Of a DNA stretch of 50,849 nt, positions 50,203 through 50,796 are shown in pieces (positions within the stretch are counted from its first letter, which is position 1; each line of letters begins with the position of its first letter). The DNA is taken from the sequence record PP925846.1. One strand, written 5' to 3'. This stretch comes from Escherichia phage BabyEgg. Under the pieces are notes generated by a model. That model had not been told where the DNA came from and searched no databases. It was given only the letters and a program-made list of their open reading frames with translations. The position numbers and the translations under genes were made by a program.

Positions 50203-50505
50203 CATGCCTGGTGCATTATTCCAGTTATTCCACGCTCAAAGAATAATCGGAATAAGTTGCTTAACTGTTAAATTGGTTAGTGTGATATGCGTTTACCAGG
50301 TTTTTCGATTGATTGCGTGTGTGATTAATCATGTGTGGCGGGGTGTATAGAGCGTCGCTATCTCCTTGCCTCGTCCTGGTGGTGTCAGCAAACAGAAACT
50401 GTTTATTTTGTTCGTGCGTGTTCGCGTATCAGGGCAGCATGTTTCCGCGCTGTTTTTCAATGTATTGCGAACGCAAAAAACAAAATAAATCCCTTATAAT
50501 ACATT

Positions 50506-50700
50506 GAAAATAAAGAATATTTATTTATGTATATATTTATGTGTTATTTCTTGTTAGCGTTGTTAGTGTGGCATGTTATGGTTGCGGTGTCGCTTTGTTG
50601 GTATATATATGGATAGTTGCGCGCCTGGTGGAATGAGTATGTGTATATATACTTTTATTGCGATATTGCGCTAACAGCGCGAACAGAAAGAAAACAAGTG
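50506..50700. promoter_or_regulatory. AT-rich divergent control region, copy B of the duplicated ~190-bp element
   Basis: homologous to 30222-30410; ends with GCGCTAACAGCGCGAACAG. Confidence 0.6.
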
Positions 50701-50796
50701 GTAGAAACTTATTGTAAATCATGTGGTTATGTAGCGATTTTCTCAAAACACCGGTGACGCGAACAGGCAGCGAACGTTATACGAACAAAATAAACA

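Follow-up and report, generated by a model that had tools for sequence, protein, structure and literature searches.

The 50,849-nucleotide (nt) genome of Escherichia phage BabyEgg (sequence record PP925846.1), which in its full length is the window analysed here, carries two paralogous intergenic modules in which a 5-bp core, TGTTC or its complement GAACA, recurs in phased arrays around the two least stable stretches of DNA in the genome. We tentatively read these arrays as iteron-type protein-binding repeats of two replication-origin-like modules, a reading that we place first among several and hold with somewhat less than even confidence. The window is a complete T1-like coliphage genome of the genus Warwickvirus (Drexlerviridae, Tempevirinae), and a megablast comparison of the region with phage records returned Escherichia phages MatMar, WaterSpirit, BEBK14 and Jahat_MG145, all members of Warwickvirus, at 96–97% identity. 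The genome record was opened just before a start codon, and the MatMar counterpart of 50122–50849 continues into the homolog of gene 1..468, showing circular continuity across the junction. Module B (50.38–50.85 kb, from 50380) lies in region B (50122–50849), which separates a leftward block of small early genes from a rightward one. Module A (30.1–30.55 kb; 30097–30551) lies in region A (30041–30551), with a leftward lipoprotein gene on one side and rightward exonuclease–Erf genes on the other. Both modules are intergenic and about 450 bp long, and they stand 20 kb apart.

The cores are grouped in same-strand threes with a spacing of 9–11 bp, which places the units of an array on one face of the helix. 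Five such same-strand phased triplets of TGTT or AACA occur in the 50.8-kb genome and all five fall within regions A or B, at 30116/30125/30135, 30259/30269/30278, 50400/50409/50419, 50542/50552/50561 and 50673/50682/50693; the number expected by chance in this genome, which we estimated from tetramer densities, is about 0.3. The same holds for phage tunus, where four of four phased triplets lie in regions A and B, and for phage TLS, where all those found lie in its two equivalent regions. Shuffling the modules gave a concordant picture: TGTT/AACA tetramers number 15–20 per module versus 5–9 in dinucleotide shuffles, and same-strand pairs 8–11 bp apart number three to eight per module versus about 0.3 in dinucleotide-preserving shuffles, an excess of roughly 20-fold. 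Across ten homologous modules from several genera, the observed pair count was reached by none of 500 shuffles in nine modules and by one of 500 in the tenth. It is thus the arrangement, and not the number of words, that lies far beyond chance.

A sequence-only reading of this DNA had drawn attention to short GC-rich words clustered in the control regions and likened them to an operator or iteron array. Every string it quoted is present, each displaced by 1–3 nt or less: in region B, GTTCGTGCGTGTTCGCG at 50410–50426 (quoted as 50411–50427), TTGCGAACGCA at 50465–50475, ACAGCGCGAACAGAAAG at 50674–50690 and GACGCGAACAGGCAGCGAACG at 50756–50776, and in region A, CTGTTCTCGCCTGTT at 30124–30138 and CGCGAACGCGAGAACAG at 30384–30400. 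The proposed clustering holds for the 6-mer GCGAAC/GTTCGC, the most enriched G+C-containing word in regions A and B, which has six copies in the two modules versus 0.57 expected (about 10-fold; binomial P = 2e-5, or P of about 0.01 once corrected for the 542 words tested). It fails for the exact 8-mer GCGAACAG/CTGTTCGC, since four of its six copies genome-wide lie in coding DNA, two in region B and none in region A. The bare 5-mer TGTTC/GAACA is clustered in the modules no more densely than in two other windows of the genome, and word counts by themselves therefore amount to a modest finding. Nor is the GC-rich 8-mer the repeated unit, as had been supposed; that unit is the 5-bp core set out in helically phased triplets.

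Comparison with related genomes separates the core from its surroundings. In alignments of 13 region-A and 10 region-B homologues, which are phylogenetically related sequences, core columns have a mean identity of 0.875 to the base found in this genome and spacer columns one of 0.611 (Mann-Whitney p = 3e-7), and the G and C positions of the core are as conserved as its T and A positions. What is conserved of the quoted words is TGTT(C), or (G)AACA(G) on the other strand; their GCG flanks are free to vary, as are the spacers that separate the cores, so that the expected conservation of the words in relatives is borne out for the core and not for its flanks. The unit is spelled CTGTTCGC in this lineage, TGTTCACG in TLS and TGTTCTC in Hanrivervirus. 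One of the quoted copies, at 50759–50766, is contained in a 28-nt insertion (50739–50766, plus strand) private to the lineage of this genome and MatMar, which adds one GCGAACAG unit in phase with the next two.

On the plus strand, the order of parts in a module is an L array (TGTT), a short opposed array, the AT-rich core, a C array (TGTT), a G+T-rich stretch, the R1 and R2 arrays (both AACA) and a rightward sigma-70 promoter, here called P_R. Arrays on either side of the AT-rich core thus point in opposite directions, with L and C reading TGTT and the core-proximal array and R1 reading AACA. In module B, the L array (50399–50427, including GTTCGTGCGTGTTCGCG) has three TGTT(C) units at 50400, 50409 and 50419, whose cores are conserved and spacers variable in the 10 homologues. 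The core-proximal array (50465–50487, including TTGCGAACGCA) reads GAACG..AAAACAAAA in the opposite orientation, immediately to the left of a conserved TATAAT; in phages T1 and Rtp its place is taken by TTACGC(C) repeats 10–11 bp apart. The AT-rich core (50480–50539; 87% A+T) begins with the strongly conserved CTTATAATACATTGAAAATAAAGA, in which the TATAAT occupies 50494–50499. The C array (50540–50580) follows with TGTT at 50542, 50552, 50561 and 50574, and the R1 array (50665–50697, including ACAGCGCGAACAGAAAG), with AACA(G) at 50673, 50682 and 50693, faces L and C. The promoter-proximal R2 array (50756–50793; GAACA at 50761, GAAC at 50772, GAACA at 50783) stops 4 nt short of the −35 hexamer of P_R(B). 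That promoter (50797–50824, plus strand; TTGACA-16-TATAAT) is the only one in the genome to match the sigma-70 consensus at 12 of 12 positions, and it points across the circular junction into gene 1..468.

Module A has the same layout on the same strand. Its L array (30114–30141, including CTGTTCTCGCCTGTT; TGTT at 30116, 30125 and 30135) adjoins a leftward copy, at 30097–30117, of a 21-nt element containing ATAGCAC. The AT-rich core (30207–30266; 85% A+T) is followed by the C array (30259–30285; TGTT at 30259, 30269 and 30278) and, facing L and C, the R1 array (30384–30411, including CGCGAACGCGAGAACAG; GAAC at 30387, GAACA at 30395, TAACA at 30406). A promoter-proximal R2 array with an A-tract (30460–30488; GAAGCG..AAACAG..AAAACAAA) precedes the conserved P_R(A) (30495–30522; TTGACT-16-TAAAAT), which lies upstream of the exonuclease–Erf–SSB genes. 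None of the units overlaps the −35, spacer or −10 of either P_R(A) or P_R(B).

The AT-rich cores are exceptional for the genome as a whole. By nearest-neighbour stacking energy the module B core is the least stable 60-bp stretch in the window and the module A core the second (z = 4.5, with the next at 3.3), and in tunus, TLS, T1 and Rtp the equivalent cores again take the first two places (z = 4.6–5.8, next 3.2–3.7). DnaA boxes, GATC sites or clusters and exact IHF sites are all missing from the modules proper; each intergenic region has a single GATC, to the left of its module. With DnaA boxes and GATC clusters lacking from the modules, a DnaA-dependent, oriC-type origin is rejected. Two other candidate explanations for such intergenic DNA were also rejected. 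An RNA gene finds no match in this genome by Rfam at its gathering threshold or by ARAGORN for tRNA, and consensus folding of the cores yields no meaningful conserved structure, only about −7 kcal/mol from AT-rich self-pairing. A small protein gene is at odds with the open reading frames of the modules, which vary in strand, frame and length among homologues and mostly have TTG or GTG starts; 1–2-nt insertions and deletions are present in the module alignments. Several public assemblies are broken within these AT-rich modules, with BEK26 (MN158216) and BEC3 (MN158217) starting in region A and the Jahat_MG145, XY3 and BananaBelafonte records starting or ending in region B; such breaks may be real ends or may stem from poor coverage where the A+T content is very high.

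The pairing of modules recurs across the family. In this genome, and likewise in tunus, region A is a colinear paralogue of region B; region A is present as unannotated DNA of about 70% identity in 155 phage records, and the centre of region B in 81. Searched with a hidden Markov model (HMM) of the module, each genome yields exactly two full-length sites. TLS, which was left out of model building, has two sites (E = 1e-43 and 8e-33), and the only matches in T1, also left out, are its two equivalent intergenic regions (E = 2e-5 and 0.014). No module copies were found in plasmids or complete E. coli genomes, and scans of IMG/VR added few useful loci. T1 and Rtp show the same architecture at both loci, built from other words: GTGTAACAG, three tandem copies of CGATTAACA, and ATTACGCC in T1, and GTAAC, GTTACGC and TTTACGC in Rtp. 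Neither the T1 nor the Rtp genome has a phased TGTT/AACA triplet, and the only phased triplets of the words tested there (TAAC in T1, TTAC in Rtp) fall in the equivalent regions. The idea that these repeats form a binding-site array, whether operator or iteron, is in this respect well supported, by phased sites, conserved cores with variable spacers, two paralogous intergenic modules and the same pattern across genera. Since the word differs between phages that all grow on E. coli, a phage-encoded binder is favoured over a host factor; the sequences suggest a binder that co-evolves with its sites, and a host protein appears less likely.

What the arrays may do is suggested by comparison with known origins, and the origin reading is ranked first because the layout matches that of the origins of staphylococcal pathogenicity islands (SaPIs) and the pair of modules matches oriL and oriR of phage SPP1. 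The SaPI origin has penta- or hexanucleotide iterons in opposite directions on both sides of a central AT-rich region, and its initiator is a self-loading AAA+ helicase whose C-terminal winged helix binds the iterons and which works with a primase (PMC9371898). Here, too, each module has several short repeats, with 5-bp cores opposed around the least stable DNA of the genome, and the phage encodes a P-loop helicase with a predicted C-terminal winged helix and a separate primase. In contrast to SaPIs, where the origin is immediately downstream of rep, the helicase gene (44856–46439) is kilobases from the modules; Rep belongs to the superfamily 3 (SF3) clade, whereas the model of the helicase in this phage matches MCM; and there are two modules per genome, with a much longer AT-rich span and additional internal arrays. 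SPP1, a virulent pac-type siphovirus of Bacillus, has two origins of similar organisation, combining direct repeats with an AT-rich unwinding element, and a single phage protein binds both (PMC6316719). The two colinear paralogous modules described here, 20 kb apart and each having direct repeats as well as an AT-rich core, resemble that pair. They differ from it in that SPP1 oriL lies inside the gene of its binding protein and the repeat sequences are unrelated; no homologue of SPP1 gp38 was found in this phage.

Satellite phage P4, whose alpha protein binds its type I iterons, offers a third comparison. According to its record annotation, ori and a second region away from it, crr, both carry TGTTCACC repeats in either orientation, in sets of two or three with a spacing of 9–11 bp. 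The likeness lies in the two separated cis regions with the same repeats (modules A and B are colinear and 20 kb apart), in the TLS unit TGTTCAC(G), which matches the P4 unit in seven of eight bases, and in the primase: residues 13–263 of P4 alpha align to 36037–36807 of this genome (tblastn E = 3e-9), a zinc-ribbon/Toprim primase. TGTTCAC is enriched in TLS only, where four of eight genome copies lie in the modules. Unlike in P4, the best-conserved half of the P4 unit, TTCACC, is absent here, and the helicase is of the DUF3987 family. A weight matrix built from 16 annotated P4 sites had no match of at least 7 bits in the modules of this genome and none in T1; in tunus it had two matches of at least 10 bits, a slight enrichment. 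The P4 origin-binding domain (Pox_D5 winged helix) and the D5-type helicase gave no tblastn, BLASTP or Pfam signal in this genome. With no enrichment of the matrix and no sign of the origin-binding domain, membership in the P4 system is rejected, but the layouts remain alike.

The anatomy also favours iterons over operators, because the arrays face each other across the least stable DNA and the −35 and −10 elements are clear of units. Under the origin reading, a phage-encoded, sequence-specific protein would bind the arrays cooperatively and wrap or distort the DNA so as to melt the AT-rich core, which the MCM-like helicase and P4-alpha-like primase of the phage could then enter. The two modules might act as two origins, or as an origin and an auxiliary cis site, in the manner of SPP1 oriL/oriR or P4 ori/crr, and this assembly may be coupled to the strong early promoters that border each module on the right.

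Two proteins are candidate binders. The first is the DUF3987 P-loop helicase itself (44856–46439, minus strand), whose predicted fold is MCM-like and ends in a C-terminal winged helix. Its predicted model has a predicted local distance difference test score (pLDDT) of 88, and the solved structures that it matches significantly are all MCM2-7 or archaeal MCM proteins; in sequence searches of solved structures, neither the helicase sequence nor its family profile gave a significant match. The second, already proposed by the sequence-only reading, is a Cro/YdaS-like helix-turn-helix (HTH) protein with a conserved basic N-terminal arm (36901–37377, minus strand). It is encoded just upstream of the gene for the P4-alpha-like primase (35932–36894), in which Zn_Ribbon_Prim was detected. 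Co-variation did not serve to choose a binder, as the winged helix of the helicase does not vary in step with the word and the recognition helix of the HTH protein is different in every lineage and hence uninformative. A more specific proposal is that the modules are the T1-family origins and that the MCM-like helicase loads itself at opposed pentamer arrays around an unwinding element, at two paralogous sites and without a separate initiator, with a pentamer code that drifts between subfamilies and with one origin beside the pac region and the main early promoter; we regard this fuller version as doubtful.

Several points weigh against reading the modules as origins. The motif was defined after inspection of the data. 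The helicase gene is at least 3.7 kb away from the modules and the primase gene about 5 kb away, in contrast to SaPIs and lambda, whose origins are adjacent. The outermost arrays (L and R2) are directly upstream of promoters and in the same orientation to transcription, an arrangement that also fits a transcription factor, and unstable AT-rich DNA is typical of strong promoter regions as well. GC skew tracks gene strand and is uninformative on origin position. With regard to the helicase, its winged helix does not follow the word (that of Rtp resembles the one in this genome, while the Rtp words resemble those of T1), the fold match of the winged helix is generic, and the P4 origin-binding domain falls outside its top matches.

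The strongest competing account, which we consider possible though on balance unlikely, is that the arrays are sites for a transcription factor, either activator or repressor, that controls divergent early promoters, the AT-rich core being mere promoter-upstream DNA. Each module is indeed a divergent promoter region, with P_R(B) as the sole perfect sigma-70 promoter of the genome and P_R(A) conserved. Relative to P_R, the R2 array covers about −38 to −66; in module A the L array adjoins the leftward 21-nt element, and both of these arrays read GAACA three times toward their own promoter; the strongly conserved TATAAT at 50494 after the core-proximal array and a conserved HTH "transcriptional regulator" encoded by the phage fit the same account. 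Simple repression is nonetheless unlikely, as no unit overlaps a −35, −10 or start site. The C and R1 arrays have no recognisable promoter beside them, and about 400 bp of conserved upstream DNA that includes both stability minima exceeds what a promoter needs. Moreover, Cro-like HTH proteins normally bind dyads, and the array units are direct repeats. On these same grounds, operators of the Cro/CI type, which are dyads overlapping a core promoter, do not describe the arrays. Boxes for response regulators of the OmpR/PhoB type (the pho box, ArcA box and tor boxes) are closer in form, being short direct repeats about one helical turn apart that lie upstream of or replace the −35, with sequences resembling TGTTA or CTGTTC. 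However, the period here is 9–10 bp and not 11 bp, and most arrays are away from promoters; the word also differs between T1, Rtp and Tempevirinae on one host, which speaks against host response regulators (OmpR/PhoB/ArcA) as binders. The origin and transcription readings are compatible and do not exclude each other.

It is a good deal less probable that the arrays have no dedicated binder and that phased TGTT/AACA units with T/A tracts instead provide curvature or contacts resembling those of an UP element, or recruit IHF, Fis or H-NS to strong early promoters. The period of about 10 bp, the A-tract directly upstream of the −35 in both P_R promoters and the extreme A+T content of the core are in keeping with this, as is an exact IHF consensus, TATCAATCACTTA, between R1 and R2 in Hanrivervirus. 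Yet the G and C of the core are as conserved as its T and A between free spacers, the words differ between subfamilies on one host, and the modules of this genome hold no exact IHF site, DnaA box or GATC cluster.

We think it very unlikely that the arrays are terminase (pac) recognition elements flanking the packaging cut, as in P1, where short repeats border the pac cut on either side. This possibility draws on the T1, Rtp and TLS records, which all begin within the equivalent of region B (T1 has an annotated terminal repeat at 1–2800), and on the Jahat_MG145 record, which is broken in region B. But module A carries the same arrays away from any mapped end, the small terminase gene lies 8 kb away, and the records start within the leftward portion of region B (50202–50390), a portion outside the shared module that has different repeats of its own. 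Finally, the idea that AT-rich spacer DNA has gathered these short words by chance is hardly credible: the four genic copies of the exact 8-mer against two in region B and the lack of unique clustering of the exact 5-mer would suit it, but it is contradicted by the shuffle tests, the confinement of phased triplets to the modules genome-wide, the conservation of cores over spacers and the recurrence of the pattern in TLS, T1 and Rtp.

Region B is of separate interest in its left part. The stretch 50202–50390 is absent from region A, and the T1, Rtp and TLS records start, at what is taken as the packaging end, in its equivalent. There, T1 (in the 1–180 stretch) has two TTGC-N7-GCAA sites 30 bp apart, at positions 2 and 32, Rtp (1–60) has two with the same spacing at positions 8 and 38, and TLS (49790–49902 and 1–60) has GACCGATTGGTCTA twice together with runs of GATTT. 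We regard 50202–50390 as a candidate pac region.

The 21-nt element that adjoins the L array of module A, AAATAGCACnnnTTGnTAAAA, has about 20 copies in the genome, each oriented along transcription; examples are found at 727–754, 2218–2245, 6168–6195 and 39902–39929 in the plus sense and at 44324–44344, 47168–47188, 49098–49118, 50180–50201 and 30097–30117 in the minus sense. It is already known from the TLS paper, where no function was assigned to it (PMC11447400). Its ATAGC(AC) half recurs in P_R(A) and P_R(B), in each case in the spacer and immediately upstream of the −10, so one factor could act on both promoter classes. An 80-nt inverted repeat (40943–41022 and 44265–44344; 88% complementary) encloses a 3.2-kb block with phosphoesterase and lysis genes, and each of its arms holds a hairpin and one copy of the 21-nt element. 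Elsewhere in the window there are a 63-nt tandem duplication at 35190–35315 within the tail-fibre gene and repeats of 120–132 nt at 28073–28311 within the large J-like tail gene. GATC occurs at 248 sites genome-wide (4.9 per kb), and the genome encodes a Dam-type methylase.

T1 belongs to the classical T phages, and phages related to it are both common laboratory contaminants and candidates for therapy. Recent genome papers on T1-like phages nevertheless report that no origin or origin-type repeats were found (PMC11447400, PMC7718038), and the literature we searched, whose scope did not extend to the T1 genome paper, contained neither a mapped origin nor a transcript map for these phages. Two precise candidate sites per genome are now defined by repeat unit, spacing and orientation, together with two candidate binders. 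If the modules are indeed origins, a basic gap in the biology of the family would be filled, the way in which an MCM-like phage helicase finds its origin would come into view, and cis elements would be at hand for engineering T1-like phages or phage-dependent plasmids. If the arrays instead serve transcription, they would define the control of the strongest early promoters of the family.

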